Source: a virus (taxonomy: Duplodnaviria > Heunggongvirae > Uroviricota > Caudoviricetes). Taken from it: 48,261 bases of DNA. A program made the translations under genes and the position numbers. The stretch lies in the IMG/VR virus record IMGVR_UViG_3300033068_001142, positions 1 to 48,261 of that record. One strand, 5' to 3'. Of the stretch, positions 14,123 to 43,535 are shown one piece after another (position 1 is the stretch's first letter; each line of letters begins with the position of its first letter). The notes below the pieces were generated by a model that saw only the letters and a list, made by a program, of their open reading frames with translations, was not told where the DNA came from and made no database searches.

Positions 14123-14478
14123 TGGCTAGTAAGTTTATAATAAGTAAGGGTATGAGTAATGAGTTTATTATTACGATTAAGCAGGATGGTACTACATTAC
14201 CAATGGTAATTGACGCTGGGGATACTTTTGTTAGTAAGTTGTTTAAGATGAGTGATGGAAGTGTTGTGGCTACATTAGCTACTACTGTTGAAGATGCTAG
14301 TAATGGTAGGATTAAAATTGTTATTAGTGATAAGGTGGTTAATGGGCTAGATATTGAGCGAGGTGACAAAGCTGATTACTATTATGCTAAACCGTTGTAT
14401 AGATTAGCTATTGACTGTAATACGTTGAATAACGGTAAGTTTGTTGCTAAAGTTGATAAGGTGTACGTAGAATGGTAG
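14122..14478 (+). CDS. Tail/baseplate adaptor-like beta protein (BppU N-terminal-like)
   Basis: beta-rich; VEDASNGRIKIVISD pattern; precedes the giant tail protein. Confidence 0.4.
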   Translation: MASKFIISKGMSNEFIITIKQDGTTLPMVIDAGDTFVSKLFKMSDGSVVATLATTVEDASNGRIKIVISDKVVNGLDIERGDKADYYYAKPLYRLAIDCNTLNNGKFVAKVDKVYVEW

Positions 14479-20400: not shown

Positions 20401-21083
20401 AATATAGGATACCAACACTTAGTTCTATATCTGAGCCTATTCAAACTTATACTGGAAAAGGTACAAAGACGTTAGTAGGTAGTATATTTCCTTACAATTA
20501 TACAACAGCTAATAGTAACCTTAAATCAAGAAAGAAACGGCCAACTATTACTGTTACTAATACCAGTGTGATATATTCTTCAAATAGTCTAGGACCTAAT
20601 GCGTACCTTGACTATAACGGTGGATACTACCCCCTTCTGCCTAATACACCAAACTTTGGCAATGGGAATGGGACATTAGTTGAGATATGGTTTGGAGGTG
20701 TTCTTCTTGTTAGGTTTGGGTCATACTATCCGTATGATATTACTCATAGATGTTATGTGTATGACGCGCTAACCCAGACTTATGTTGATGGAGGCATATA
20801 CCTTACATACAGCCCAGGTAGTTTAGATAAAACGCTTACATTAACTACATCTACTTTCGATGTAAAACTACATTATACAAGGGAGTATTCACAGTATTGT
20901 GATGGTGAGGGATGCTACTCTAGTTCAGGAGGTAGTTTAACATTATCTTTGCTTTCAAAATCATTTGTACTACCATTTGACTTTACATTTGGTAATTTAG
21001 AGATAAGAAGTATCTACTCATCTAATGAGGCAGATTTCAATTTAACAATTCCGTCTGGAATTATTATTAATAATATGATATAG
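14472..21083 (+). CDS. Giant repeat-built tail fibre/tail-tip protein (2203 aa)
   Basis: About 14 DGK-type repeats with P....GD(L/Y)W; DUF1983-like FWIKADKF..PFTVD..GEI segment; CBM-like C-terminal domains. Confidence 0.75.
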   Translation: MVEITNENGIEVIVSDPSIEADVVNLNELDIRVSKKEYTIVGDDIYIPKLYDDAPEWMKNLVQIVVDVSLETGNTDLINQLNSVLSEFATQYVPLNQYTQSILDLSNEDTRINAVIETLNSNYNDGISEANAQIIGLQLTKASKTEVVAQVLQTISAELQNDESNLGAVVARLDQAIADESSARAMSFETVMASMESLDGTVSGEASATSKLYAYVGYERDGSTTGTGLLADVQILQKQNDGVIETYTGTYDVMIGIEDPNNNTDNDQLDATKEPYASWIAEDTLNGNNAVRSSHTGDVFIKYSTSEFGYKTYIRAYKFIRTIPDATSPYSTDLEGFTWAVISDTDAQNAYIAALNALDLADDKRRVYVGLGTTTTPSVPYDQGDLWLIDAARTVNGYACKVGDILRCLESKGKVATYEENDWVLTSSYANAVAAEAAALETWKNTTYASTIATIQTQVDGKAETFYQSSIPTGRIKSINVPTNSTLDKYVGDLWKNTYVGTTGGYLGDNTEYIYTKTANGSNWNYDWTKMEVPDIVFDTIDTKKSIYSGNSLPVAVYPDVIELNDMWITGDTPVAPYVAKSIYVWSKTGSNPDTFRWVIPVKYTDDTATVALQTGLVNGTVIVNLASATIDGSKALTTYVAEEIDKEVVIYSGTNHATQTGMKSNDIYIEKTTAVSSSGITIDVVNTWKYNGSAWVQIGNNSNLTALADLTDGKRTIYSGTSLPINSTLNPLRPNDLFIPTSTFVANTITYTANEMYRYNGVSWEKATRYDEIKSLLQTQIDNKIETTYGGATPPYANRTNVAKDPRGGDYWYCDTDGAYLKGNVYKYTETANGSNFNYTWTLSSDVSKGAFDLADKKRIIFGNAGNSVPTLGEGLALADIWIPSSDGSIYLSGKVYKCTNLNPIAFVEVDYTNDEVVNGIISGTTPLDPNTITIGNINTTFLEYITAEIDGKVGVYSGETAPVNGQPSGVAVNDIYLWFTTASKVLANGTTQVYDITRTYKYSGTVWNEITTDSNIVALADLADGKRTVFSGNTVPVGSVDRDIWIPSADVSITTSAMCSVANGTWNGTSCSVSKYYQGEVYQFSATGKWIVATKYTANLEAVRTNLQGQLDGKVETYYQATVPTGMTALNNGDYWYCTADVSTYKKGKVYKYVHATTSWAETADVSRYAFDVADGKAAIFSSTNLPTSGYKINDMLIVVGSFNNGTTTFADGVVLSSTANRTSGFTPADWVKKINDTEDLDAFVSGTYTPTVTSLQNQVDGKVESWFQNSTSDPKTAWTDAATRSKHDGDLWYQLDTNRSYWYSSSTNAWNLIDDEKAIQALTNAAAAQTSANNAQTSANTANSLLADIASDNKLVPSEKVAVKKEWDIIQSEYTKNWAQGNVYGVSTSSYTSAYNSLSGYITPLLSSLTTTSDIVGTTFRNMFKAYYDANVDVLNAVANKINAIADGKITSYYIDTFSSLQALSNGWTTAEKTSNVGDLATVWNDSTLDNNGLWRWNGTSWVSARDKKLVSIAGEVTNLSTELNNGTNTWASADSELENSLRTEISSEGARVESKFAYNSTLVLNGTSYSSGFGIATSLTSGSGLPTGQSEFWIKADKFKLMSADGSKKSSYSPFTVDSVTGEINFNGKVSFNSIPRSPTNIIAETWSEGNGSTPLYNIVGSSYENARIYMNNPSGQLSVVWACIADGTGNSDGGWDTVPFQIDRTKTYRFSVFIKTNQANGSSYLGCGPNTVTTLNSSTKDGNPYFWYGDLPSQNEWYLLVGYVYPSGKTGLVSNGGIYSCTNGRKVANTTDFNWAADAVNSNHRCYLYYSDSQFTRQFMYDPRVEMVDGNEPSILDMINTTNVGYSPSEVVSSINGGQTTTIDGGKITTGSITASQINTVGLIAENISANEIVGKTMTGSIINGASINGSVIKTSYLDLDGDLEVLTDYHLCTSQSQLDALLTSGGDGRLVGFNDKVENGGDAIFMEASNEYRIPTLSSISEPIQTYTGKGTKTLVGSIFPYNYTTANSNLKSRKKRPTITVTNTSVIYSSNSLGPNAYLDYNGGYYPLLPNTPNFGNGNGTLVEIWFGGVLLVRFGSYYPYDITHRCYVYDALTQTYVDGGIYLTYSPGSLDKTLTLTTSTFDVKLHYTREYSQYCDGEGCYSSSGGSLTLSLLSKSFVLPFDFTFGNLEIRSIYSSNEADFNLTIPSGIIINNMI

Positions 21084-26107: not shown

Positions 26108-29100
26108 ATGGCTGACATATATAAAGAACTACTTAACACAGCTGCGTTAATGGATACTGACCCTACACCAGCTGATACAATTGCATTAAAGGCAATGACG
26201 TTAGAACAAAATAAACAATCAAAATTAAAAGCCTTAGGTGGGCTAAATCAAGGAAGTAACTTGAGTGAGAGTTACAGTTTGACTCCGCAAGGAAACCTTG
26301 AGTATAATAAAAATAAAATATGGAATGATGCTACCTCTGCGGAAGTACAAGGAATGTTAGGTGAAGCTGCAAGTAAATACCAAATATATCAAGATAATGG
26401 TAAATGGTTTCAAGGAACTGGTACTGATAAGAAAGAGTATACTGGAAATTTCAGTGATACACAGAGAGCATATATGTACGGTACAAAGGAAGACCCAAAT
26501 GCCGTAAAGTTTGGACTAGCTAGAGGTGATCTACCAAGCTCAGATTACAGGTATCTACCAGAACAAGCTACAAAAGAGGGTTATAGTACTGGAAAACGAG
26601 GCTACGGATGGGATGCAGGTGAACAAGGTGTAGACTTAGATAAAAAGTACATGGATATGGTATTGCCTAAAGATGTGGCTATCGCATTAGAAGGAGCAAT
26701 ACATGGAAGAACAAAAGCACTAGAGAATAGGGTGTACCCTAACATGCTTAGTGATAAAGGTGAGATAGGATCTGGAGCAAGTGAGTACTATACAAGTGCA
26801 GAAGGTATGTTAGGAAATACACAAGGATTAACTGCACAGGAGTTAAGTGTAGGGCAAGGTAAACTAGGAGAATATAGAAAAATTGTCCCAGTTGATGAGT
26901 ATGTTAGGCCTGACCTTAGCGGTGCTACCGACCTTGAATCATATAGCAAGTCTGGGAGTAAGTTGTCTTACGAGGATTGGGCTAACAGAGGTGATCAAAG
27001 AGATTCGGATGGTATTGATGCTTTACAGGTAGGTGCTGCAAGATGGTGGGGTAAAACTCAAGAAGCTGCAGGAGAATTGCTGAAAAGCTTAGCTGAACAA
27101 GATAAAGAATTTCTGGGAAAAGAAGATGCTAGGCTTAAAGAAAAATACAACGAGAAGGTATCTGAGTTTAGGAAATCATTTAACGAGGGGATTAAAGAGG
27201 CTGGTGAGTATCTGACTAAAAGAGGAGAATTCGTTAAGGATAATGCTTCAGAATATTACGGTTACAACGATGCGGGAAGTAAGACAGCTAAAGCAGTATG
27301 GGGCGAACTGAAACAAGGGAATGTGGTTAAGGCACTAGAGAATGTAAGTACAGAAGGTGTACTTGGGTTAGTGGCTGAATCACTACCAGAAAGGGCTATG
27401 TACTATAGCCCAACTACGTTGTTAACATCGTACGCAGGAAATGTAGCAGAAGCTAAGAAAGAGGCTGAAAAGATTGCGGGTGGTGAGATAAGTACTGGAA
27501 GAATGTCAGCTATACTGATTGGGGAAGGGTTGAGCATTGCATTGGATAAAGCAGTGTTTGATGGAATTATCTCACCTGCAAAAGCTGGGGATGTGATTGA
27601 AAAAGCTGCGGAGAAGTTAGCAGGGACAGTACCAAATGTGTTGTTGAGTGCATCGGTTAAATATGCAACAGATAAAGTTACAAGAGTTGCAGGAGCAGTT
27701 GCAGCTGAAGGTACACAAGAGGTGTTACAAGAAGGGCAAAGAATTGCAACTACACAACTTGGACAAAAAGACGTACTGACAGAAGAGAACTTAGATAGAC
27801 TAGGGGAGTCGCTAGTTGGTGGTGGATTAGCAGGTGGAGCTATGAGAGGAGGAGTTGAGACAATATCAACTGCTGGTGATGTGTTGAGAGGACCTTCAAG
27901 TGAACTACAAGCTAAAAGACTAGAAGAGCTAAAAAGTAAAACTAAGGAAGAAGTAAAGAATAACATGGAGTCTAGCTTGGATATGACTGGGTCAGTTGAG
28001 TTAGGTGAAGCAGATAGAGAAGTTGAAAGCACACTCGGAGTGGATTCAGTTAGCAGAATGTACAATGATTCAAGTAACGTAGATGAGATGTTAGCTAAGA
28101 TGAATGAAGCTAAGAAACAAATCTTGGCAGATGTGTATGAGTATGATGAAGCTACAGATAAATTTACAGGAGTGAAGGATGTTAGCAAGCTTGACAAGGT
28201 AGAAAAATGGTTTGAAGACTATGGGACTTTCCAAGCAGATGTGACAGGTAAAATACCTGAGAATATTCAAGATGAGATTGACCATATAAAGAAAGCCAAT
28301 CAAACATTTAAGACAGCTGAGACTGTCGGGGAAAGTGTTACGGGTATGGTTAAAGATAAGTTAGGGACTATGGAAGGACTTAGCGAAGAAGAGAAGATAA
28401 GTAATATAAATAAGCAAATCGATGATGTGATTAATACGTATAAGTTTGACGAAAAAGTACCTGGAGCTAAGGCAGCAATAACAAGAAAAGTTATGCAAGC
28501 ATATGAGCTATCAGGAATGGCAGGACTAGGAAATGGGATTAACCTTGAGATAGATAAAGATGTGTTAGAGAGTCAAGTTAAAGAAACGGCAGGAATTAAA
28601 GCTGGAACAACTGGACAAAGACTTACAAGTAGAGACGGAAAAGTAGTTGAAGTTGGAAGTGTAGCGAATGAAGAGTTGATGGGTATGTTGAGTGGAGAAG
28701 GTACAAGCTTCCCAGCAGATCACCCAAATACAAAATTCAGAAATACAGTGGTTAAGAAATTAGACCCACAAGAAGCGTTTAACGTTACAAGTGCATTGAC
28801 TGAAGTTGGAAGTAAAATGAATGAAGCTGCGGATAGAAATATCGGAGAAGCTGGAAGATACTTCAAAGGAGGGGATGTAAAGGGTAACATGGTTAGACTT
28901 ATGACTGTGGTAGCTAACGCAATTAACAGTCAAGTTGAGTCAGATACAGACTTAAGGTCGAATACAACTGGAAGTGATAGCTCATTAAGGTCTGGAGAGT
29001 ATTGGGCAGGATTGAACAATGTGTTGGAGCAAGCAGGTAAAGATTACGCAAGTACATATGGGTTAAGATTGACTGGAAAAGATAAGGTTGCATTAGCTAA

Positions 29101-32100
29101 AGCACATAGAGATTTAGGGAGGTTTGGAGTTAAACTGTTAGAAGATGCAGGTATGGTTGAGATTACGAATGACAACATGTGGTCGATAGCAGGTGAGACT
29201 GTAGGAGCTGACGGTAGGCAAATATCAACGCTGAATACGAAAGGTGTAAGAGTATCAAAAGGTAAAGATACACTAACAGATGAAAATGTGACATTGGTTA
29301 TGGATAAAGGTATCAGACTGGTTGACAGTATCAAAGAAGTAGGTGCAAGACCTGACAATGAGCCAGTGAGTAGGTATGGAGATGCGATTAAGAGAGTAGC
29401 TAAAGTGATGTTACCTAATGCAAATAGGGTGCCAGCGACTGAGTATGTTGACAGCAACATCAAACACGATGAAGATATAGAGATTGATGAGATTACAACT
29501 GAAATATTGAAAAGAAAAATGAAGACTCCATTTAAAATGAAAGGTGGAGTATTTGGAAAAGTGTTAGAGTATATAAGAGGTATAAACGATAAGGATGAGT
29601 TAAGAGCTGAGATTAAAAAGTCGGCAGAATTAAGAAGATTCCTTGGGCTAGAGGAAAGTGGGAGTGAGCTGTTGAAAGTGAATGACAAGGGAAGTACGAT
29701 GAGCAAGTTTGACAACTTGGTTGGAATACTGGATAACTTGGATACACTTAGCAATCCAGAAGGTGTATATTACACATTCCAAGTGGATATAAATGACAGA
29801 TTTACGGTTAGAGAAACAATAGCGAATTACCAAAGTGACAAAGTATATGCAAGAGCACTGATGGCAATTGGTGCATATAGAACTAAGACTAAAGAAGGTA
29901 AAGATATATTGGTATACAGCTTAGCTGATGAGTTAAAGTCTAAAGATGATAAAGAAATGAGCGATTTAGAAGCTGTGCTAAAATATGCAGATATATATAA
30001 ACAGATTGAAGAATTAGCGAATGGAGACACTAGAAATCTGATTGAGATTATAGCAAATACAGCTAAAGAAGGAAAAGCTTTAGCACACTTAAAAGGATTA
30101 GGGGGAATTAGAATCTTGAGTTTACTTGAGGGAGCTAAGGACATACAAAAAGCTATGAAACCAGATGGAACGTTAGGAGATGTGGTTACAGAGTATATAC
30201 CAGAGAAAGATGCAAGTGCGTCTGGAGTATTTAACGTTACGATGAATATCGCAGGTAGAAATAAAGAGTTTTCGAAACAAAGGTTGATGGAGCTTGGAGT
30301 TACATTTGGTGATGAAGGAGCTAAAGAGACGAGAGATGCGTATAAGATATTGGGTGACTTGATTAAGAAGATGTTAGATAAGACTGTTGAGGTTGATGAG
30401 AGTATCGGATTACCAAAAGGTGGTGAAGATCTGATTGCGGTAAGAAGAATAAACGATGCATTAGCTGATGACAAGTTGATGAGACAACTGGCTAAATATC
30501 CGATTATGACTTGGTTTTACTCAGCAAGAGAGAAATCGATTAAAGAGAACTTGACTAGCGAGATGACGCAAGTATTGGTGGAAAGAGCGTTAGAAGGTGA
30601 CACTGGGGTGTTGAAGTACCTGTCGGATGTAATGGGTAGAGAAATTACAGCAGATAACGTTAAGTATATCAAGAAGGGTGACAAAGACCACAAAGCACTG
30701 AGAAAAGAATTGAATAAGATTGGTAGTGTATATTACAGCTACCTACAAGAAGCGTTTCCAGAGGTACAAGAGACTAAAGATGAAATGGCTGAATACTTTG
30801 AGTTTCTGACTAAGAACAGTGTGATTGACGGTAAGGATTACTGGGAAGGTAGAGTAAGAACTGGGCTTGGAGCTGTGCATGGTACGAATACAACAATGAG
30901 TCTATATAAGTGGAAAAATCAAGCAATTGATATGAGTGAGCAAGAAAAGATAGATAGAGGATTAGCTACAAAAGATGAAGCTGCATCACTGATTACAGTT
31001 AGAAATAGAATGCCAAATGAGACATCACTGATGGCACTGTTAGCTCACAATGCGGATGCTGCAGAAGCAGCGGCAATGTTGGATGGAGTAAGTGACGGTG
31101 TTGCAGTACAGTCGAAACATGATGGATTTAGCAGTAGCCCAGATGAGTTGATTAAAGGTCAAAAGAAGGCTGAAAAAGCTGCGAAAGAAGTGGCGTTGAA
31201 GTATGACTTCATCGAGGAAATGGCATGGACTATGGAACAAACAGCGAATAGAATGGAAGAGGCATTAGCAGATGCAACGCCTGAAGTTAAGAAAAAGCTG
31301 GAAGTAGCGATGAAGAAGTTAGATGACAAAGTAGCAGCGATAAGAGAAAAGAATAAGCCGAGACTAGAAGCTAAAGCTGAATTGCTGAAAGATGCTGAAA
31401 CAAGCCTGTTTGGAAAAGAAGGGTATGTGAAGCAAGAAGAAGAAGTTGCGGTTGAGGAAGAAGTAAAAACACCAGAAGCTGTGAAAGAAGAAGCAGTTGA
31501 AAAGGTATATGAGAATATATTGGATGTGATTACAGATATGGATACAGCAGATGAGAGAAAAGTAGATATCTTAGCTAACAAAGACAATGTGAAGATTGTG
31601 ACTGTGAATGCGGAAGTTGAGGCGATGTTACGTAAAAAAGGTAACAAAAGTATCAATGAGTTTCTGAAAAATGGTGGATCGTTTACGTATAACGGGACGG
31701 TGTATATCGGTAAGAAACTGATGAAAGGTATCGATGAGGTTAGTGGTAAGAGAGTTACGGCTGAGCAGATACTGGATACGGTAGCACATGAAATTGAACA
31801 TGCAGTAGCAGATAAGTATATAAGCAAAGAGCATAAGGGTGAGATTAAAGCTGAGTATGATAAGATTGTGAGTATATTAGAGAAAGCGAGTATGAGTGAG
31901 AGGGTGCCAAGAATGTCTCCAAGGGCTAGAAGCAGAATGGAGTATGTGATTGACATGACGTTAGCTGGGAATAAGATGCAAGCAGTGAAAGAGCTTGTGG
32001 CAATGGGTAGAGAGGATACAGTGTTTGCTGAAGTTATGGAGAATCTGAATAAGATGGCTGGAATACAAGGAAACTTTGTGGAAAGAGTGATTAAGAAGAT

Positions 32101-32476
32101 TTGGAATAAGGTTCAGGAGCTGATGGCTAAGACTCCAGTTAAGGAATTGCTGAAAAATACGGATGTGTATAGCTTAGGAATTGCAATAAGAAGTATACAA
32201 GATAAGGCTAGAGGTATTGAAAATAAAGGAATTGGTAAGGCAAATGCTGGTACAATTGCAGATAAATATCCAAACCCGTTTGATGAAGATTTCGTGAGTG
32301 GGTTAATGGAAAATAAAGTAGAGTCTAAGCAAGAAGAAGCTATACTACAAAAAGAAGATAGTGCTTTAATCGATGAAGCAGTAACTACTATTAATAAGCT
32401 TATAGATAATGGTTCTGGAAAAGCTTATAAAAAGTTATTAGAAGCAATAATAAAAGATATAGAAGGATGTAAATAA
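26108..32476 (+). CDS. Virion-encapsidated single-subunit RNA polymerase, N-terminal plus catalytic part (N4 gp50-like), with zincin HExxH
   Basis: DINDRF..NYQSDK (DxRGR/NPQ-like, about aa 1226), motif A EKDASASG (about 1368), motif B RQLAKYPIMTWFY (R-x3-K-x7-Y, about 1459), motif C KHDGF (about 1672), TVAHEIEH..VKELVAM. Confidence 0.88.
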   Translation: MADIYKELLNTAALMDTDPTPADTIALKAMTLEQNKQSKLKALGGLNQGSNLSESYSLTPQGNLEYNKNKIWNDATSAEVQGMLGEAASKYQIYQDNGKWFQGTGTDKKEYTGNFSDTQRAYMYGTKEDPNAVKFGLARGDLPSSDYRYLPEQATKEGYSTGKRGYGWDAGEQGVDLDKKYMDMVLPKDVAIALEGAIHGRTKALENRVYPNMLSDKGEIGSGASEYYTSAEGMLGNTQGLTAQELSVGQGKLGEYRKIVPVDEYVRPDLSGATDLESYSKSGSKLSYEDWANRGDQRDSDGIDALQVGAARWWGKTQEAAGELLKSLAEQDKEFLGKEDARLKEKYNEKVSEFRKSFNEGIKEAGEYLTKRGEFVKDNASEYYGYNDAGSKTAKAVWGELKQGNVVKALENVSTEGVLGLVAESLPERAMYYSPTTLLTSYAGNVAEAKKEAEKIAGGEISTGRMSAILIGEGLSIALDKAVFDGIISPAKAGDVIEKAAEKLAGTVPNVLLSASVKYATDKVTRVAGAVAAEGTQEVLQEGQRIATTQLGQKDVLTEENLDRLGESLVGGGLAGGAMRGGVETISTAGDVLRGPSSELQAKRLEELKSKTKEEVKNNMESSLDMTGSVELGEADREVESTLGVDSVSRMYNDSSNVDEMLAKMNEAKKQILADVYEYDEATDKFTGVKDVSKLDKVEKWFEDYGTFQADVTGKIPENIQDEIDHIKKANQTFKTAETVGESVTGMVKDKLGTMEGLSEEEKISNINKQIDDVINTYKFDEKVPGAKAAITRKVMQAYELSGMAGLGNGINLEIDKDVLESQVKETAGIKAGTTGQRLTSRDGKVVEVGSVANEELMGMLSGEGTSFPADHPNTKFRNTVVKKLDPQEAFNVTSALTEVGSKMNEAADRNIGEAGRYFKGGDVKGNMVRLMTVVANAINSQVESDTDLRSNTTGSDSSLRSGEYWAGLNNVLEQAGKDYASTYGLRLTGKDKVALAKAHRDLGRFGVKLLEDAGMVEITNDNMWSIAGETVGADGRQISTLNTKGVRVSKGKDTLTDENVTLVMDKGIRLVDSIKEVGARPDNEPVSRYGDAIKRVAKVMLPNANRVPATEYVDSNIKHDEDIEIDEITTEILKRKMKTPFKMKGGVFGKVLEYIRGINDKDELRAEIKKSAELRRFLGLEESGSELLKVNDKGSTMSKFDNLVGILDNLDTLSNPEGVYYTFQVDINDRFTVRETIANYQSDKVYARALMAIGAYRTKTKEGKDILVYSLADELKSKDDKEMSDLEAVLKYADIYKQIEELANGDTRNLIEIIANTAKEGKALAHLKGLGGIRILSLLEGAKDIQKAMKPDGTLGDVVTEYIPEKDASASGVFNVTMNIAGRNKEFSKQRLMELGVTFGDEGAKETRDAYKILGDLIKKMLDKTVEVDESIGLPKGGEDLIAVRRINDALADDKLMRQLAKYPIMTWFYSAREKSIKENLTSEMTQVLVERALEGDTGVLKYLSDVMGREITADNVKYIKKGDKDHKALRKELNKIGSVYYSYLQEAFPEVQETKDEMAEYFEFLTKNSVIDGKDYWEGRVRTGLGAVHGTNTTMSLYKWKNQAIDMSEQEKIDRGLATKDEAASLITVRNRMPNETSLMALLAHNADAAEAAAMLDGVSDGVAVQSKHDGFSSSPDELIKGQKKAEKAAKEVALKYDFIEEMAWTMEQTANRMEEALADATPEVKKKLEVAMKKLDDKVAAIREKNKPRLEAKAELLKDAETSLFGKEGYVKQEEEVAVEEEVKTPEAVKEEAVEKVYENILDVITDMDTADERKVDILANKDNVKIVTVNAEVEAMLRKKGNKSINEFLKNGGSFTYNGTVYIGKKLMKGIDEVSGKRVTAEQILDTVAHEIEHAVADKYISKEHKGEIKAEYDKIVSILEKASMSERVPRMSPRARSRMEYVIDMTLAGNKMQAVKELVAMGREDTVFAEVMENLNKMAGIQGNFVERVIKKIWNKVQELMAKTPVKELLKNTDVYSLGIAIRSIQDKARGIENKGIGKANAGTIADKYPNPFDEDFVSGLMENKVESKQEEAILQKEDSALIDEAVTTINKLIDNGSGKAYKKLLEAIIKDIEGCK

Positions 32477-35400
32477 TGAAGTGTAAAATAGGTGAAGCAA
32501 TAGAAAAAATAGAGAATCTTATTGATAAACCAGCTATTAAAAACTCTGCTGATACTCTAGCAGAACTAGAAAGAGTTAAGAGATTCCTTAACTCAGCTAG
32601 GGAGATAAAAATGTCTAAAATACAAAGTAGCACATCTCCAGAATTTATTGAGTTTCAAAAAGAAAATAATAATGAGTATGATTCTGAACTTGATACAAGT
32701 ATAGCTAATAAGTTAAAATCTATATACAAAGACATAGAAGTAATTTACTTGAGTGGTCAGAATGAAATGAGAGCTGTACTAGAAGAGCTTGGTGGAGATA
32801 TAGCTTTATTTCAGCTATCTAAAAAAAGAAAAGAGGAATTTGAGAAGAAGTTAAGAAAAGCTAGGCCAGAATTAGATAATACTAGTTTAGATAAAATACT
32901 TAGTAGTATTGAAGAGTTTAGCGAGACTGAAGCAAATGGTAATGAAAAGTTGATGAAAAAACTAGAGTTATTGGCTCTACATTGGACAATCAAAGGTAAC
33001 GTGATTCTTCCTGAAGACAGTGAAAAGGTCATGTCAGCTTTAAAAATAGCAGATAAAAATAAATTTGATCCATTTAACTATGATAGCCCAAATGATATAA
33101 ATAATGCATTTAGTCCTATAAGTGAAAAAGAATCTACTATAGATCCAGACACTTTTCTTAATAAAGGTTTTAGCAATAAACGTGAAATAGGTAATGGAGT
33201 AGTTACCTATGACGTTGCTAATACTGAAACTGGAAGAGAATCTTCTAGAAAAATAATGGATAGTCACTATGATACTAACTTTAATCCTTGGTGTTTATTG
33301 TTTAGGGATAGCTATGGTCTCACAGAAAATAGTAGTAAAATGTGGTATGAGCAATACCCTGGAAATAAAAAGATAGCTTTTAAAGATGGTAAATTGATCT
33401 CGTTTTATGGTGGTGATAAGTGGTGGGATATCCACGATGCTCCTCATAAAGGAATACCTATCATAAATAGAGGAAAATTTATAGAAGGGGAAAATAGGGT
33501 TAGAGAGTCTTCTATTGTCGATGAAAATGATGCTAATAAAGTTATAGCTGTAAATGGTTATGAACTAGGTGTTAATAAACCTGGAAATGAGTATAAAAAA
33601 TGGGATAAAGATAAAAATCTTTTATTACATATTACAAAAGATGGTACAAAAATAGCAACAGATTTTGATGGTAAAATCTCTACATTGTATCCTGATGGTT
33701 CTGGTATTATAGTATTTTCTAACGGTAAGATCCATAAAAAAGTTTTAAAGGACGGTTCTTTCACAACTTGGAATGAAGATGGTAATGTAATAGCTGAGTA
33801 CAAAGTTGAAAAAGGCTATACTAAATGGTTTAGTAATGGTACTATAAAAGAGACTGGTGATTCCCCATACTCTGATAATAACGTAAAAATATATTATGAA
33901 GATGGTTCCTTATATGAGGAAAAAATAGATTATACCACTTATAAGAGATATGATAAAAAAGGTTTTTTAGTTGATGTTTCGTATCCAAATAAATATAGAT
34001 TGAATGGATTGGACTATTTGGGGAGTGTATCCTATAACTCAGAAAATACTGAAAAAACTATTATTGTGGATTATTCTGAAAGAAAGTTTGATAAGTATAT
34101 TCAAAAAACAGTTGTTAGTAAAGATGGTACAATAAAAATATATAAAAAAAATTCTGATGATAAAGTAGATGAAATAATATACCCTGATGGCAGTGCAGAG
34201 ATGTATGACACTAGAGGAAGAATAATTCAAACTATTAGTAAAGACGGTGAAATTGAAGTTAAAAAATATGGTATTCTTGATAATATTAAAAGTTTTATTG
34301 GTTTTCAAAAAACGGATGATATAATAAAAGGGGCTGCTGTAATTAATAAGAAAAAAATACTTATTGATATTGAAAATAGATCTACAGATACATTAGCTCA
34401 TGAGTATGCACATTTTTATATAGCTGCATTCAGAGATACACCGATAGTTCAAGAAGCTATAAAGAAATGGGGTAATGAAGAAGCTTTAGTACAGGCTATT
34501 GGGGAGCAGGTAGTTAAGCAAAAAGGTGAAGTTTATAACTGGTGGAAACAGTTTAGTAAATGGATAAAAGACTTATTTGGTAGCCTAAATAAAGCCACTA
34601 AGGAAGAACTTGTTCAATTATTAACTGATGCGTTTTTAACAAATAGAGATATTAGTGCTGAGACTAAGATGAACGATGACGGAAGTATCACAGTAGCGAC
34701 ATTGGACGGTGTATATACGTTTGAGAATGGAAGTGAAAATAGCAGAAATACGTACAAAGGTAAGAGTGTTAGCATGCCGATTATGAAAGACATTGAGATG
34801 CAAGCTAGCGCTGAACTGAGTGGATTTACAGTTCCGTTTAACGTGTTATCGAGTCAAGCGAATAAGTGGGCAAGTGACTACCTAGTGGTTGGACTATCAG
34901 AAAAAGCTGGAGGTGTGTTAAAGCCATTGGTGATGAAAGCACATGCAAAAGCTAAGCAGAAGAACAGTATGTATAGAAAGACTGTGAATTTGATAGCAGA
35001 AGGGTATAGGGATTCAGAATTGCTGGCTAAGATAAGAGTGATGTTGAAAGTAACTGGAGATATCGATGACAAAAAATTAGCAGAAGTGATGACAGTGGCA
35101 TATAACAACGCTAGAATGACTAAAGAGGTGTTGGATACGAAATTGCCTGAATTGGATAAGTGGATAAAAAGAGAGTTGAGAGATGCTAAAGATAGGAAGA
35201 ATCTGAATGACATATTTGGAAGAAGTGGATTTATGCATTTGATGGACAATCCAGATGTGATTGGAGCACTGTACAGTGGAGAGACAGATGTAGATAAGCT
35301 GATAGCGAAGATACCTGCAAGTAAGTTACAGATGGAAGAAGCTGAAGCACTAAAAGAATATCTGATAGAAGGTAAAGTTAGCAATACTGGAAGAACAAAC

Positions 35401-37587
35401 GGAAATGGAAGTAAGACGGTAGAACAACTTGCAGCTCTGTTAGCTTTGAAGGATGAAGGACGTATGGATACGTTAGTTAAACTAAGAAGTAAGCATTTGG
35501 ATCTGTATGAAGAGATGCTGATGTTAAGTGGGATGGTTAAGAGCTTGCATGAAGTGGTGTATAGCGGAAGAAGAAACGCTGTAGGAACTGGAAGTGGAAG
35601 AGTATATACAGGGTATGACAGTCACGGAATGATGGATGTATATGAAGGAACTCACGAGTATAAATATGTGACTAAAGAAGAGCTGAATGGGGTGTTGAAG
35701 GATCCAAGATGGAAAGTGATTAGAACACCAGAGAAAGATGTGATTGGGATTGTAGCGAGAGAGAGTTTGAATAGCTACCAAGAAGGTATCGGATTAGACA
35801 AAGATGTGATTAGAAATGGGATTGCATTGGACAAGGATTTCGTGGAAAGTAACGTGTTAGGAAAAGGTGCAGAATGGTTAGCTAAGAATAACATCGTGTC
35901 AGATACAGATAACGGATATACGAGATATAGGGTGGTGCTAACAGCTGAAGAAAGAAGTGCGAATGGGTATATGGATAACGTTGCACATACGCTGTACAGA
36001 ACATGGGTACATAACGCACAAGTAGTGGAAATGCAAACGGTACAAGGAATTGTGACTGAAAGTATGACAGCACAAGGTGAGACTGGATTAAAGGATATGG
36101 AAGCTACGATAAAAAGAAATAACATGGTTGATGCAGATAGAAGGAGAGAGGTTAAACCGTTTCTGGATATGGAGATTAGCTATGAAGAAATGAAAGAGAA
36201 ATATCCGGAAGTATATAAGAGGTATACACCTGTGAAAAATATAAGCAACTATGCCGATATGAGAAGAAAAGTTACATATGTAAGAAAAGATATGGAAGAT
36301 ATATTGATTGGGTATAGTACTGGAAGTATATTCAAGGATGATAGCACGTTTGGAGTTGGATTACAGAGAATAGAGACAGTGTATAAGCAGTTGGTTCAGA
36401 TGTTGAAGTTGAAATTGGTGGTTGCAAATCCAGCTAAGTTAGCGATGGATACATTGAGTAACACAACGTTGCTGATGTCGATGGATGTAGGAATTGACGA
36501 GATTGCAAAAGGATTCCCAAAAGCACTGAAGTATGCAAATGAGATGAGTGGGATTGAGAGTAGGTTAGTGGTTGCGAAGATTGGATTAGCAAGAGCAGAA
36601 GCTACAGGAAAAGATACAAGAAAAGCTAAAGCAGAAGTTGAAGCAGTGATGAAAGAAATGGAAAGACATCCGTTTTACCCAGCGATTAAGAATGGATTTA
36701 TCCAGTCACAGGGTACAAGCATGTTGGTAAAAGAATATGACACGATTTCAGGGCTACAGAAGACGATTGACGATGTGGTTAAGATGGTTGTGGCAGATGA
36801 GAAAGGAAATCCAAATAAAATGCATGCTGCATTGGTGTGGATGATGAATGCAGGATTTGGGATAGATGATATATTGAATAGCGTTAGCAATATGAGTAAA
36901 GTTAAAGGAACAACATTTGGAGAAGAACTTGAAGGAATTGCAAAAAGACTAGAAGAGAAGAAAGGGAAGGATGTAATCCGAGCAGAAGAGAAGAGACTTG
37001 GAAGAAAACTGACAGAAGATGAAATTAGGGAGATTGAAAAGGATGCCGACACAGTAAGATATGTTAGCGAATTCATTGCAGCACCTAGTTCCGAGTTGGT
37101 TAGACAAGGGTCACGTGTGATGCAAATGGCAGATATAATGTCTAGATGGACGATGTATACGCATGAGATGAGTAAAGGATTGAAAGAGATTGGGTATACA
37201 TATGAGAATGAGTATAAGGCGCAACAGGATATCAAAGCAGGTAAGCTGGACAAAGCTAAGTACGATAAGATAGAATCTGATGCAGCGATTAAGGCACTGG
37301 ATACGTTTATAGATTATAGGATGAATATGCCTAGAGAGGTTAAGATGTTGAGTGATTTAGGAGTGCTGATGTTTCCAGCGTTCTGGATACGAGCACAGAA
37401 AGTGATATATAACTTAGCTAAGTACCATCCAGTGAATGCAGGGGCAGGGCTACTGCTTACAGATATGTTAGGGTTGAATGGTGCATCGATTGTGGATGCT
37501 AACTTTGTGAATAAGATGATGAATGGGACATTGGTACAAGGGGGACAGAATGTCTTAGACCCTGGTACTGTCATCCTCGGATTGTAG
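32476..37587 (+). CDS. vRNAP C-terminal-region homolog as a separate gene, with a polyvalent-type insert (zincin, PWCL domain, MORN-like repeats)
   Basis: C-terminal LKLVVANPAKL..LSN, QMADIMSRW.MY.H and FIDY..MLSDLGV.MF..FWIR..V resemble the recalled N4 gp50 C-terminus; TLAHEYAH..EEALV. Confidence 0.7.
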   Translation: MKCKIGEAIEKIENLIDKPAIKNSADTLAELERVKRFLNSAREIKMSKIQSSTSPEFIEFQKENNNEYDSELDTSIANKLKSIYKDIEVIYLSGQNEMRAVLEELGGDIALFQLSKKRKEEFEKKLRKARPELDNTSLDKILSSIEEFSETEANGNEKLMKKLELLALHWTIKGNVILPEDSEKVMSALKIADKNKFDPFNYDSPNDINNAFSPISEKESTIDPDTFLNKGFSNKREIGNGVVTYDVANTETGRESSRKIMDSHYDTNFNPWCLLFRDSYGLTENSSKMWYEQYPGNKKIAFKDGKLISFYGGDKWWDIHDAPHKGIPIINRGKFIEGENRVRESSIVDENDANKVIAVNGYELGVNKPGNEYKKWDKDKNLLLHITKDGTKIATDFDGKISTLYPDGSGIIVFSNGKIHKKVLKDGSFTTWNEDGNVIAEYKVEKGYTKWFSNGTIKETGDSPYSDNNVKIYYEDGSLYEEKIDYTTYKRYDKKGFLVDVSYPNKYRLNGLDYLGSVSYNSENTEKTIIVDYSERKFDKYIQKTVVSKDGTIKIYKKNSDDKVDEIIYPDGSAEMYDTRGRIIQTISKDGEIEVKKYGILDNIKSFIGFQKTDDIIKGAAVINKKKILIDIENRSTDTLAHEYAHFYIAAFRDTPIVQEAIKKWGNEEALVQAIGEQVVKQKGEVYNWWKQFSKWIKDLFGSLNKATKEELVQLLTDAFLTNRDISAETKMNDDGSITVATLDGVYTFENGSENSRNTYKGKSVSMPIMKDIEMQASAELSGFTVPFNVLSSQANKWASDYLVVGLSEKAGGVLKPLVMKAHAKAKQKNSMYRKTVNLIAEGYRDSELLAKIRVMLKVTGDIDDKKLAEVMTVAYNNARMTKEVLDTKLPELDKWIKRELRDAKDRKNLNDIFGRSGFMHLMDNPDVIGALYSGETDVDKLIAKIPASKLQMEEAEALKEYLIEGKVSNTGRTNGNGSKTVEQLAALLALKDEGRMDTLVKLRSKHLDLYEEMLMLSGMVKSLHEVVYSGRRNAVGTGSGRVYTGYDSHGMMDVYEGTHEYKYVTKEELNGVLKDPRWKVIRTPEKDVIGIVARESLNSYQEGIGLDKDVIRNGIALDKDFVESNVLGKGAEWLAKNNIVSDTDNGYTRYRVVLTAEERSANGYMDNVAHTLYRTWVHNAQVVEMQTVQGIVTESMTAQGETGLKDMEATIKRNNMVDADRRREVKPFLDMEISYEEMKEKYPEVYKRYTPVKNISNYADMRRKVTYVRKDMEDILIGYSTGSIFKDDSTFGVGLQRIETVYKQLVQMLKLKLVVANPAKLAMDTLSNTTLLMSMDVGIDEIAKGFPKALKYANEMSGIESRLVVAKIGLARAEATGKDTRKAKAEVEAVMKEMERHPFYPAIKNGFIQSQGTSMLVKEYDTISGLQKTIDDVVKMVVADEKGNPNKMHAALVWMMNAGFGIDDILNSVSNMSKVKGTTFGEELEGIAKRLEEKKGKDVIRAEEKRLGRKLTEDEIREIEKDADTVRYVSEFIAAPSSELVRQGSRVMQMADIMSRWTMYTHEMSKGLKEIGYTYENEYKAQQDIKAGKLDKAKYDKIESDAAIKALDTFIDYRMNMPREVKMLSDLGVLMFPAFWIRAQKVIYNLAKYHPVNAGAGLLLTDMLGLNGASIVDANFVNKMMNGTLVQGGQNVLDPGTVILGL

Positions 37588-40760: not shown

Positions 40761-41402
40761 TTATGATTTTTTAGGTCTACCTCTTCTTTTTACTTCAGCA
40801 ACTTGTGCCGGTGTCTCAAAAGGTGTTGTTTCTTCTAACAATGCTTTACGTCTAGCCCATCTTCTGATAACCTCTTCACTGTTCATCCATAAGTCTTGTC
40901 CGTCTATAACAGAATTCATTTCTTTTTCTGTTAAGAAATTTTTATAGAAAAACCTAAAGTCCTTTTCAGTATTCAAGTCTGTAAAGGTTTGGTAAGCTTT
41001 TAGCTCATGGGCTTTACCTGAAAGACCGCTCGCACTATAGTTGTGTATCATGAATGATAAGTGATCAGATACTATTAGTTCGTCACATGAAAGTGCGATG
41101 ATAGTTCCAGCTGATGCCACTGTTCCAGTTAAGTAGGCTACTGTTTTAGCTTTTGCGTTTTTAATGGCATCTACTAACATCATTGCTGAGTGTAAGTAGC
41201 CTCCTGGAGTGTTTAGGTGAAGTGTTACAGTTGCTTCTGCTGGTGCGTGTTTAAGTCTGTAACATAGTTCGTTGTATGTGAATGCTTCATCTATTTGGTC
41301 TGAGATGTAAGCAGTAACATCACCTGAGTCTGTAGTAATTATAGGAACGGCATTATCCCAAATTGAATGTTTTGGGGCTGTGAATAAGTCTTCTAAGTTC
41401 AT
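40761..41402 (-). CDS. clpP: ClpP-like serine protease subunit
   Basis: LNTPGG, VASAG (Ser), FMIH (His), QDLWM (Asp). Confidence 0.85.
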   Translation of the reverse strand: MNLEDLFTAPKHSIWDNAVPIITTDSGDVTAYISDQIDEAFTYNELCYRLKHAPAEATVTLHLNTPGGYLHSAMMLVDAIKNAKAKTVAYLTGTVASAGTIIALSCDELIVSDHLSFMIHNYSASGLSGKAHELKAYQTFTDLNTEKDFRFFYKNFLTEKEMNSVIDGQDLWMNSEEVIRRWARRKALLEETTPFETPAQVAEVKRRGRPKKS

Positions 41403-41746
41403 TGTGTATCCTTTTTAGTTGTTGTTAAGTAGTGGAGAAAAGCTACGTTTGTTAGGGCATGTGATAGGTGGTGTAAGCCAGATTCAGGGTCATGTGATTC
41501 ACCTGATCGATAGGCTTGCAAGTGTCTGTACAGTGCGTCTAAGTAACGTTGCTCTCCGTTTTCCACTAGCTGCCAGTTATTTGGGGCATATTTACTTGCT
41601 CCAAAGCTAAGTACCTCTGCAAGCGCTTGAGTTGTCTCTACTGGAATCAGTGAGTACTGAAGTTTACCAGTGTCAAACTTCAAGCCAGTTGCAGGCGATT
41701 TTTGAGAAACGTAGTTTTCAGGGTTTCCAAGTATTATGTCAGTCAT
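41399..41746 (-). CDS. dATP/dGTP diphosphohydrolase domain protein (DUF5664)
   Basis: GLKFDTGK..YSLIP..AEVL.FGA.KY..NNW..LDA..RH..DPESGLHHLSHA. Confidence 0.85.
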   Translation of the reverse strand: MTDIILGNPENYVSQKSPATGLKFDTGKLQYSLIPVETTQALAEVLSFGASKYAPNNWQLVENGEQRYLDALYRHLQAYRSGESHDPESGLHHLSHALTNVAFLHYLTTTKKDTQ

Positions 41747-41882
41747 CTATTATTACCACTTCCTTTGATAGAGAGTCTAACCAGTTGTACTGGTCATCGT
41801 AGTACATCTGTAGAAGAGTTTTTTGATCAACTGAGTCACAAAGTGAATCAGCTAATCGGTCTATTAGTTCGTATCTAGTCAT
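41739..41882 (-). CDS. Small acidic hypothetical protein, 47 aa, not in the ORF track
   Basis: Read by hand: MTRYELIDRLADSLCDSVDQKTLLQMYYDDQYNWLDSLSKEVVIIDD; AAAGGA RBS; overlaps both neighbours. Confidence 0.55.
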   Translation of the reverse strand: MTRYELIDRLADSLCDSVDQKTLLQMYYDDQYNWLDSLSKEVVIIDD

Positions 41883-42546
41883 TTTTGGTTCCTTTCATAG
41901 CTTCAGCAACATTTTCATAGTTGTGTTCCAAATTATTATCCTTTACGTATTGTTTATAGCTCTGAGAAGCTTCTTCTGCCGTAAGAAAAGTGCCTAAATA
42001 GGTTCTTTTTCCATTTACAGCTATGTTTGCTTCCCATCCTTGTTTAGATTTGTTAAAACTTACACCTCTATGTCCTGACTTATTGTTAGATCTTAAAGGT
42101 CTAGTATTTTGAGATTGAACTGATGGAGTAGTAAACCTACAGTTATCAGGAGAGTAGTCTTTATCAACATCTATACGGTCAATAGTAAGACCTTCTTCCC
42201 ACCCATTTTGTAGTGCCCAGTTAAAGAACGTTTCTCTACTGTTTCTCCATTCTTCACATACCTTAATACCACGTCCTCCATAGTCAGAATAAAACTCTGT
42301 TTTAGGGTTTTCACATCTCTGTACCATATTATTTATTGTGTTGTTTAAAGGATGCTTCCTCATTCCATGTTTTTTAGCTCTTAGTTTTGAGGCACACGAA
42401 TTGCATCTTTCTTGATTTCTAGCTTTGACAGTTTCAGTCCTAGCTTCGAAATGTCCCTTACAATCACTACACTCGTAAACCCCTATACGTTTTTTAGTTT
42501 TATCAGAGACCTGTACCATACCCAAGTTTTTAATTAGTTTCATCAT
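41875..42546 (-). mobile_element. Free-standing HNH homing endonuclease with C-terminal AP2 domain
   Basis: M.QRC..YGGRGI.VC.EW..TIDRID..YSPDNCR; NKSGHRGVSF..W.A.I..YLG.F; own promoter; base skew differs from flanks. Confidence 0.85.
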
Positions 42547-42575: not shown

Positions 42576-42606
42576 AATTATAGCATACTCAAACTGAAAT
42601 ATTACT
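42576..42606 (-). promoter_or_regulatory. Extended -10 promoter for the HNH gene
   Basis: TGCTATAAT on the minus strand (TATAAT at 42582-42577). Confidence 0.65.
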
Positions 42607-43535
42607 TATTCAGTCTCAGTATGTATTAAAGCATACATAGCCTGGGCTGTTTGTTGTATTTCACGCTGTGCTGTTTTATGGAGCCTAAGAATAAAGAAGT
42701 TATCTAACTGAGTAGGTTGGAATGCTCCCCAAATAGTAGTCATCATAGCTTGTGGTAAGATACGTCTAGCTTCCTCAGGTTTGATACCTGACTCGATGGC
42801 AGCGTCGTACGCTCTTAGGCATCCTCCAATAACGTCATTAATAATAGATTCATCAAAAGGCCAGTCAAGTTCTAAAGATGACATCTTCTCACTAATGTAA
42901 AAATCAAATGGTTGTTTCTTACCACTAACGTATCTACGAGATAGTTCTTGCCAAGAACATCTATGTCTAACCATTTGGGCACGAGTTGATAAATCTACAT
43001 TGAATAGGAAGACTTTGAAGTTGTCTCTGATGATTTGAATTTCCTCATCGGAAGTGTTCAAGTAGTTCAGAGACTCTTCAGAGCCAACGTCAGCGATTAA
43101 AGCTCGAAGGTTTGTTAGAAGGTAAGAACTTGCACCTGCATGGATAAATTCTCCAAATTTAATTACATTTTGAGTATGTGGTGCTCTAGTACCTTCTGCT
43201 ATATGTTTAGCAAGCACTGACCTAGTTATCTCAACAATTTGTGGTATTGATAAAAGAACTGGTACAAACTCGTAGCTTGATGACGGAAGGCCAGCAGCCT
43301 CTGCCTGTAAACGGTTGAATAAGTTGATAGACGAAAGTGCCTTGGGATTACCATAACAAATACTAGCTACTTTAGTTACAAAGTATACTCTTGCTTCATA
43401 AGAACTATTAGCTAAGGAGAAATCCCAAGCTTCCACTGAACCGCATCCCTCTGTTAGAACGCTGTTAACTCTTCTTAGTGGTTCAGTAGGCCAAGAAGGG
43501 TCACACTCTACGTGTGTTAGTTTTTCATCTGTCAT
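42606..43535 (-). CDS. thyX: Flavin-dependent thymidylate synthase
   Basis: RHRCSWQELSRRY ThyX motif; G..PEEARRILP; R...AQREI. Confidence 0.88.
   Translation of the reverse strand: MTDEKLTHVECDPSWPTEPLRRVNSVLTEGCGSVEAWDFSLANSSYEARVYFVTKVASICYGNPKALSSINLFNRLQAEAAGLPSSSYEFVPVLLSIPQIVEITRSVLAKHIAEGTRAPHTQNVIKFGEFIHAGASSYLLTNLRALIADVGSEESLNYLNTSDEEIQIIRDNFKVFLFNVDLSTRAQMVRHRCSWQELSRRYVSGKKQPFDFYISEKMSSLELDWPFDESIINDVIGGCLRAYDAAIESGIKPEEARRILPQAMMTTIWGAFQPTQLDNFFILRLHKTAQREIQQTAQAMYALIHTETE

Follow-up and report, generated by a model that had tools for sequence, protein, structure and literature searches.

A probable two-polypeptide N4-type virion RNA polymerase with a cargo cassette and cysteines at its junction

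Gene pair and junction

The window, i.e. the whole stretch of 48,261 nucleotides analysed here, is the first 48 kb of the 205,076-bp IMG/VR record IMGVR_UViG_3300033068_001142 of a wastewater phage. It holds two adjacent giant open reading frames (ORFs), which very probably encode a virion RNA polymerase (vRNAP) of the type of N4 gp50 in two polypeptides. All coordinates are those of the window, and all features of the pair lie on the + strand. ORF1 (P0001, 26108..32476) has 2122 aa and comprises an N-terminal domain, an RNA polymerase (RNAP), an acidic linker and an HExxH subdomain. ORF2 (P0002, 32476..37587) has 1703 aa and consists of a cargo cassette fused to the remaining gp50-like C-terminal domain.

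The junction (32464..32484) runs from AGGA through TGT (Cys2121), AAA, TAATG and AAG to TGT (Cys3); in codons it reads GAA GGA TGT AAA TAATG AAG TGT. One A is common to the TAA stop of ORF1 (32474-32476) and the ATG of ORF2 (32476-32478). The Shine-Dalgarno-like AGGA (32464-32467) lies 8 nt upstream of this ATG. Three cysteines occur in the 3825 residues of the pair: the single Cys of ORF1, which is its penultimate residue 2121, and Cys3 and Cys273 of ORF2.

Polymerase domain

A T7-like single-subunit RNAP domain is predicted for residues 847-1774 of ORF1 (28646..31429). The AlphaFold2 model of residues 840-1790, built on an alignment of 21 homologues, reached a predicted local distance difference test (pLDDT) score of 86 and a predicted template modelling (pTM) score of 0.82. 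Foldseek ranked N4 mini-vRNAP (2PO4, E 3e-14) and the N4 gp50 cryo-electron microscopy entries of 2025 first (E 3e-14 to 6e-12); mitochondrial and T7 RNAPs came next. With VIA-align, Z-scores of 13-20 were obtained for the N4, mitochondrial and T7 RNAPs. The N4 alignment was the longest (Z 16.9 over 765 residues, model 8-935 on gp50 1041-2063); the Z-score was 17.9 against T7 1S76 and 19.6 against yeast Rpo41. The modelled polymerase fold of ORF1 is certainly T7-like. A crAss-type two-barrel virion RNAP, suspected from the giant ORFs and the low GC content, was ruled out by the T7-like model and motifs.

Motif search, the alignment of homologues and BLASTP located the catalytic Asp of motif A at D1368 (DASASG, 30209..30211) and motif C at H1671-D1672 (31118..31123). 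Motif B extends from K1463 to Y1471-S1472 (30494..30523), with YS instead of the YG of T7 and N4. D1368, K1463, Y1471, H1671 and D1672 are invariant in the 21 homologues, which show 32-91% overall identity, and S1472 is found in at least 90%. The equivalent of T/DxxGR is DINDR. Residues 1192-1705 align motif for motif (A, B, C) with the protein annotated as vRNAP in Alteromonas phage PT11-V19 (BLASTP, E 2e-8). The spacing from D of motif A to K of motif B and from there to D of motif C is 95/209 residues, compared with 111/281 in N4 gp50 (NC_008720), and the whole domain is about 95 residues shorter than that of N4 (928 vs 1023).

An original prediction for this DNA, made from its letters, had described the two ORFs of 2122 and 1703 aa with their TAATG overlap, all T7-superfamily catalytic motifs within the larger ORF and YS in place of the motif-B YG. 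All of this was found exactly so. The compact motif spacing that it gave (about 91/213, with about 107/285 for N4) was about right, and the measured values are close to T7.

ORF1 alone gave nothing useful in searches of Pfam, PHROGs and the PDB sequences. N4 was missed by a hidden Markov model of 21 sequences searched against the PDB sequences, and PF00940 was reached by only two of the 21 homologues (E 2.9e-5). As a compact polymerase of about 930 residues that is well predicted, the domain may suit study as an enzyme.

C-terminal domain and position of the cut

Residues 730-1703 of ORF2 (34663..37587) correspond to a gp50-type C-terminal domain. The PHROG family phrog_2206, 'virion RNA polymerase', matches the end of ORF2 (E 1.3e-19). 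By tblastn, the C-terminal approximately 870 residues of two Alteromonas phage vRNAPs are matched by ORF2 (E 1e-41 and 6e-47). A model of residues 730-1703 had a pLDDT of 69, and N4 gp50 (9PNR) was its sole significant match in the PDB (Foldseek, E 2.2e-7). VIA-align placed model residues 130-929 on gp50 2716-3448 with Z 14.1 over 473 residues; the next match had Z 7.2. Furthermore, in the unsplit metagenomic relatives P0049 and P0050 one protein spans ORF1 and ORF2. The resemblance of the 1703-aa ORF to the gp50 C-terminus, as originally predicted, stands for residues 730-1703. It does not hold for the first approximately 720 residues, which belong to the foreign cassette.

The N-terminal domain of ORF1 (residues 1-840, 26108..28627) is 32-35% identical over residues 28-245 to the start of the first vRNAP piece of AltAD45-P1. 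Behind the polymerase follows an acidic low-confidence linker (residues 1775-1800, 31430..31507; pLDDT <50 at model residues 935-951), which is unsplit here. It is the positional equivalent of the linker between the RNAP and the C-terminal domain of N4, which comprises residues 2102-2123 (PMC13434306). Further on, HEIEH at residues 1894-1898 (31787..31801) is a zincin-like motif, invariant in the alignment of homologues. The sole HExxH of N4 gp50, at residue 2228, follows the start of the C-terminal domain by about 105 residues, and the DEV paper gives a putative zinc site at the corresponding place. The two HExxH motifs were paired by hhalign of the ORF1 tail profile with gp50 2100-2700, though not significantly (probability 4%, E 0.01); hence, the equivalence of the HExxH subdomains rests on position only.

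ORF1 runs about 320 residues past the linker. The cut lies about 450 residues after motif C and beyond the HExxH subdomain. As the linker is continuous and ORF1 extends through HEIEH, the cut would fall inside the C-terminal domain as defined for N4, at roughly gp50 2400-2500. The border of mini-vRNAP and C-terminal domain is not its position. Other members are cut elsewhere: the AltAD45 phages at the linker (about 165 residues after motif C), PT11-V19 and contig L008 at the border of N-terminal domain and RNAP, and contig L009 at both borders. Thus, the family is cut at three or more positions.

Cargo cassette

A low-GC cassette of 2324 bp (32315..34638, GC content about 31%) occupies the place of 251 bp in a relative with 95-96% identity (contig L013). 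It encodes the final approximately 53 residues of ORF1, the junction and residues 1 to about 721 of ORF2. In the L013 relative without cassette the second protein has about 1055 residues. The cassette is regarded as foreign and horizontally acquired. Elsewhere, a 91% identical copy forms a free-standing 961-aa protein (P0103, MKCK...ACLK*). One contig in a wastewater run departs from the window sequence exactly at 32314 and enters the cassette-less junction '...VDPIC* GGAG...ATG'. Hence, forms with and without the cassette both circulate. The cassette borders 32314/32315 and 34638/34639 coincide with breaks in the assembly graph; in the run carrying the window sequence, the ends of contigs fall at 32309-32349, where they meet a second contig of lower depth.

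Three modules were distinguished within the cassette part of ORF2. The first is a domain of unknown function (residues about 60-330, 32653..33465) with the motif NPWCLL. W272-C273-L274 are invariant, and H264, W290, W316-W317 and D321 are conserved in 11 proteins of polyvalent type. These proteins otherwise lack Cys, and Cys273 is the one internal cysteine that they retain; it may therefore be catalytic. A feature search of the ESM Atlas with residues 60-330 gave no usable match. The second is a MORN/Tcp10-like beta-repeat region (residues about 380-600, 33613..34275). For ORF2 itself, Pfam matches to Tcp10_C and MORN_2 stayed below threshold, and no polyvalent-protein family was found above it; the homologue P0107 matches MORN_2 with E 6.5e-41. 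The third is an HExxH module of about 120 residues (608-730, 34297..34665) with HEYAH at residue 642, which shares 55-77% identity with a module of about 70 giant proteins of polyvalent type. All three modules recur in such giant proteins together with ART-PolyVal, NADAR, SprT-like and helicase domains.

Iyer et al. reportedly described polyvalent proteins of phages and conjugative elements in 2017. The HExxH module, the MORN repeats and the NPWCLL domain are common to the cassette and these giant multi-domain proteins; here, in contrast, they stand in frame with a vRNAP C-terminal domain.

Split forms among relatives

The 21 homologues of ORF1 have 2028-2173 aa, and all of them end at the same conserved Cys. 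The same end was found for 27 of 28 more distant representatives with N-terminal domain and RNAP; the sole exception is a truncated fragment. Altogether, more than 40 relatives from independent assemblies have the stop at this position, with identities as low as about 30%. Syntenic contigs carry pairs of 2083|1058, 2127|1045, 2073|~1055 and 2087|1043 aa, each with its own ribosome-binding site and ATG. In the 2083|1058 and 2127|1045 pairs, GGAG or AGGA lies within a spacer of 9-10 nt. Among the relatives, junction spacers of -1, 3, 7, 9 and 10 nt occur. A Logan contig of another assembly with a depth of about 159 is identical over 32320-33100 of the window, without indel. Contigs of 90-95% identity from the wastewater run also cross the junction around 32470 without an indel there.

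Forms with and without the split were surveyed among representatives clustered at 50% identity. The survey yielded 28 pieces of N-terminal domain plus RNAP, seven of RNAP plus C-terminal domain, one RNAP-only middle piece and 13 unsplit proteins. For the AltAD45 phages, the stop codon was re-sequenced by polymerase chain reaction, and two gel bands of 270 and 175 kDa were reported (PMC3821669). The sequence comparisons, together with this precedent, confirm the split into two polypeptides that had been predicted for the window. Such a vRNAP is not new in kind, as it has been known for AltAD45 since 2013. The differences here are the position of the cut and the cargo cassette.

Cysteines at the junctions

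The outer ends of the ORF pair carry no Cys. Among the same representatives, 27 of the 28 N-terminal domain plus RNAP pieces carry a Cys at their C-terminal end, and only two internal Cys occur among the 59,634 residues of these pieces. Five of the seven RNAP plus C-terminal domain pieces have a Cys at residue 3-4. In contrast, 12 of the 13 unsplit proteins are free of Cys, and N4 gp50 has none in 3500 residues, in agreement with what was already known. The RNAP-only middle piece of the three-part split (L009) has Cys4 and Cys1250 of 1253 residues, and its neighbours end with ...ECK* and start with MAC. In this split, Cys is present at all four facing ends and at none of the outer ends.

The C-terminal pieces of about 1055 aa have their sole Cys at residue 3-5. 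Three apparent exceptions (P0035, P0039, P0040; L013:12222-12260) are gene calls from an internal Met just past the Cys: MLITAV... was called, and the true start MANxC lies five codons upstream, behind GGAG. Such calls would hide the junction cysteine in database surveys. Among 76 relatives of the cassette, a Cys was found at the N-terminal end in 58 and at the C-terminal end in 44; internal Cys amount to 0.045%, compared with 0.89% in the ORFs of this record. The codons of the junction cysteines are TGT and TGC, and the distance from the end is 0-4 residues. This variation points to selection on the protein.

Comparison with known systems

In N4 gp50 (3500 aa; PDB 2PO4, 9PNQ, 9PNR), as in the pair described here, a T7-like polymerase stands between large N- and C-terminal domains. 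Both systems have a single HExxH about 105-115 residues past the polymerase, homologous C-terminal domains (Z 14.1 to gp50 2716-3448) and a strong avoidance of Cys. In both, small proteins poor in or free of cysteine precede the gene, which closes the structural module. They differ in that N4 has one polypeptide of about 3500 aa instead of two (2122 + 1703 aa). The pair furthermore has the shorter polymerase with its own motif spacing, YS and DINDR, the cargo cassette of about 720 residues and the two junction cysteines.

The AltAD45 phages vB_AmaP_AD45-P1..P4 (ORF127/ORF126, PMC3821669) also have adjacent co-oriented ORFs, the first with N-terminal domain and RNAP and the second with the C-terminal domain. 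Their N-terminal approximately 220-300 residues are 32-35% identical to those of ORF1 (E 1e-23 to 1e-29). A genome of about 100 kb, nearby genes for ClpP-like protease, RusA and ribonucleotide reductase, and Cys at both cut ends (HCKQ* / MTIC) are likewise shared. In contrast, the AltAD45 cut follows motif C by about 165 residues, in the position of the N4 linker and without HExxH in either piece; in the window it follows after about 450 residues, beyond the HExxH. The phage of the window furthermore carries a cassette. Outside the N-terminus the similarity is marginal, with a weak match of the C-terminal piece (E 3e-4).

Among cultured phages, PT11-V19 (vB_AmeP_PT11-V19, OP751378) gave the best match to the polymerase core (E 2e-8) as well as to the C-terminal domain (E 1e-41). 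Its 'RNA polymerase' is also split (1000 aa + 2082 aa), and a Cys marks each cut end (IMCNGK* / MHKPNC). The cut, however, is at the other border, so that the N-terminal domain is separated from RNAP plus C-terminal domain. T7 and mitochondrial RNAPs share the fold and the catalytic motifs, T7 also the approximate motif spacing, but they lack giant flanking domains, packaging into the virion, an HExxH and a gp50-like C-terminal domain.

Interpretation

The ORF pair is very probably a genuine two-polypeptide N4-type vRNAP with the following division of roles. The first piece would provide the N-terminal domain, which is linked to injection in N4, the compact T7-like polymerase and the first C-terminal subdomain with HExxH. 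The second piece would consist of the horizontally acquired cargo cassette fused to the remaining C-terminal domain, which is linked to encapsidation in N4. ORF2 would be translated independently, from the AGGA site and the ATG overlapping the ORF1 stop. By analogy with N4, both pieces may be packaged in the capsid and ejected ahead of the DNA, and the first piece may transcribe the early genes.

For the two facing cysteines a disulfide is proposed. Joining Cys2121 to Cys3, it would restore one linear thread that could traverse the tail and would be severed afterwards in the reducing cytoplasm. We consider the chances about even that Cys2121 and Cys3 form such an end-to-end disulfide in the virion. 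Disulfides in a virion are known from crAss001 (PMC10172136). No published description of an end-to-end disulfide joining split vRNAP pieces was found in the literature searched. Extended to the family, the proposal states that, in split ejected proteins of these phages, the C-terminal Cys of one piece pairs with a Cys at residue 3-6 of the piece that follows. The disulfides so formed would link the pieces head to tail into one thread, which can pass the tail and is cut in the cytoplasm into separate enzymes. The cut site would also dock free-standing cargo modules with the same terminal cysteines. In the phage of the window, a module of the 961-aa type would have been fused to the C-terminal domain with loss of the Cys pair. 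This general form is plausible and has slightly less than an even chance.

A somewhat less probable alternative, which nevertheless carries considerable weight, accepts the split and assigns the junction cysteines another role. They could bind metal, attach to a further virion protein or result incidentally from conserved junction DNA that serves cassette exchange; the pieces would then associate only non-covalently or act independently. The disulfide is predicted here from a sequence pattern, and the junction is a site of recombination, as seen from the cassette ends. In addition, the Gly codon before Cys in the 'GCK*' ends is part of the AGGA ribosome-binding site as well. However, the rule holds at three cut positions (between N-terminal domain and RNAP, between RNAP and C-terminal domain, and inside the C-terminal domain) and in stand-alone cassette proteins. 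The variable codon and distance from the end, the outer ends that never carry Cys and the missing Cys pair where pieces are fused (cassette and C-terminal domain in ORF2) also speak for cysteines that link the pieces.

Programmed recoding that fuses the ORFs, either by a ribosomal hop between matching Cys/Lys codons or by a -1 frameshift, is very improbable. A ribosomal hop is known from gene 60 of T4. In the window, TGT-AAA just before the stop is repeated 14 nt later (ORF2 codons 3-4), and relatives ending with '...IC*' have TGT right before the stop and another TGT about 20 nt downstream. Several junctions, however, have no matching landing codon nearby: L010 (GCK*/MACE), the second junction of L009 (CEGK*/MAC), AltAD45 (HCKQ*/MTIC) and PT11-V19 (MCNGK*/MHKPNC). 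An ATG is kept at every junction and a Shine-Dalgarno-like site at most of them, neither of which is needed for a hop. Frame relations vary among the lineages, AltAD45 virions show two separate bands, and the constant Cys codon, in proteins that lack Cys elsewhere, is left unexplained by recoding. A sequencing or assembly frameshift that falsely cuts one gene of about 3800 aa is practically excluded: the one-base overlap with adjacent frames is the pattern of a one-base error, and the equivalent AltAD45 region was flagged as 'potential frameshift' by NCBI, but the conserved stop in more than 40 relatives, the variable spacers with their own ribosome-binding site and ATG, the identical separate contig and the re-sequenced AltAD45 stop with its two polypeptides stand against it.

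Several points weigh against the interpretation of the pair as a disulfide-linked N4-type vRNAP. The structural Z-scores place the polymerase domain no nearer to N4 than to T7 or mitochondrial RNAPs, so the affiliation with N4 rests on the flanking domains and the sequence links. The presence of both proteins in the virion, their ejection and the polymerase activity are predicted for this phage, packaging and ejection from homology and gene position. The sequence evidence across the junction consists of assembled Logan contigs. Garcia-Heredia et al. took the cysteines of the AltAD45 protein as a sign of non-injection (PMC3821669). The disulfide is deduced from the pattern of cysteines alone, and a metal bridge or another thiol role is possible. 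Since phages assemble in a reducing cytoplasm, any oxidation would come later. A complex prediction for ORF1 1800-2122 with ORF2 1-330 gave a score of 0.01 with poorly folded chains and speaks neither for nor against a contact.

N4-type vRNAPs rank among the largest proteins injected by viruses, and how they pass the tail channel of about 35 Å is an open question (PMC13434306). The clade described here demonstrates that cuts at several places of the chain do not abolish the system. Almost every cut end among the representatives is marked by Cys in proteins otherwise without it. With this, the picture of 'beads on a string' becomes directly testable, and the junction-cysteine signature yields a concrete prediction. 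The cassette indicates that a cut site can accept extra cargo, and it ties vRNAPs to polyvalent proteins.

Genome context

According to PHROG scans, the pair closes a podovirus-like structural module whose earlier genes include those for portal, major head protein and a 2203-aa tail protein. Directly upstream are two low-cysteine proteins of 545 and 479 aa, the latter without any Cys. The 2203-aa tail protein (14472-21083, phrog_23593 at the N-terminus) has 15 cysteines, unlike the Cys-poor 545-aa, 479-aa and vRNAP proteins after it. Downstream, a block on the reverse strand encodes PhoH, a ClpP-like protease, an HNH endonuclease, a ThyX-like thymidylate synthase, ribonucleotide reductase and RusA. 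The HNH endonuclease gene (41875-42546, - strand) lies between the ThyX-like thymidylate synthase gene (42606-43535) and a dATP/dGTP-pyrophosphohydrolase-like gene (41399-41746). The relatives L004 and L005 have no gene of comparable size at this position.

N4-style promoters were sought by crude searches of the first approximately 98 kb of the record. No words of 14 nt repeated three times or more and no identical GC-containing hairpins occurring at least three times were found; degenerate hairpin promoters are still possible.

The 205-kb 'complete' record resembles two related phage genomes of about 98 and 107 kb, head to tail. Portals (77% identical), major head proteins (79%), proteins of about 990 aa (58%) and of about 520 aa (59%) each occur twice, at a distance of about 98.5 kb and with conserved order. 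The stretch 98120-98477 of the record is similar to its final 358 bp (85%), and the longest Logan contig in the run carrying the window sequence has 99,354 bases.

A further giant pair lies beyond the window, in the second genome unit (record 125721-137508): a protein of 2310 aa ending with ...IIECKE* followed by one of 1616 aa starting with MGC. The RNAP-core profile built here matched neither of these two proteins. The head of the 2310-aa protein is homologous to vRNAP N-terminal domains, and the tail of the 1616-aa protein weakly to vRNAP C-terminal domains. This pair may be a vRNAP-type carrier without polymerase, or its polymerase may be too divergent for detection. Each of the two proteins has a single Cys, at the facing end.

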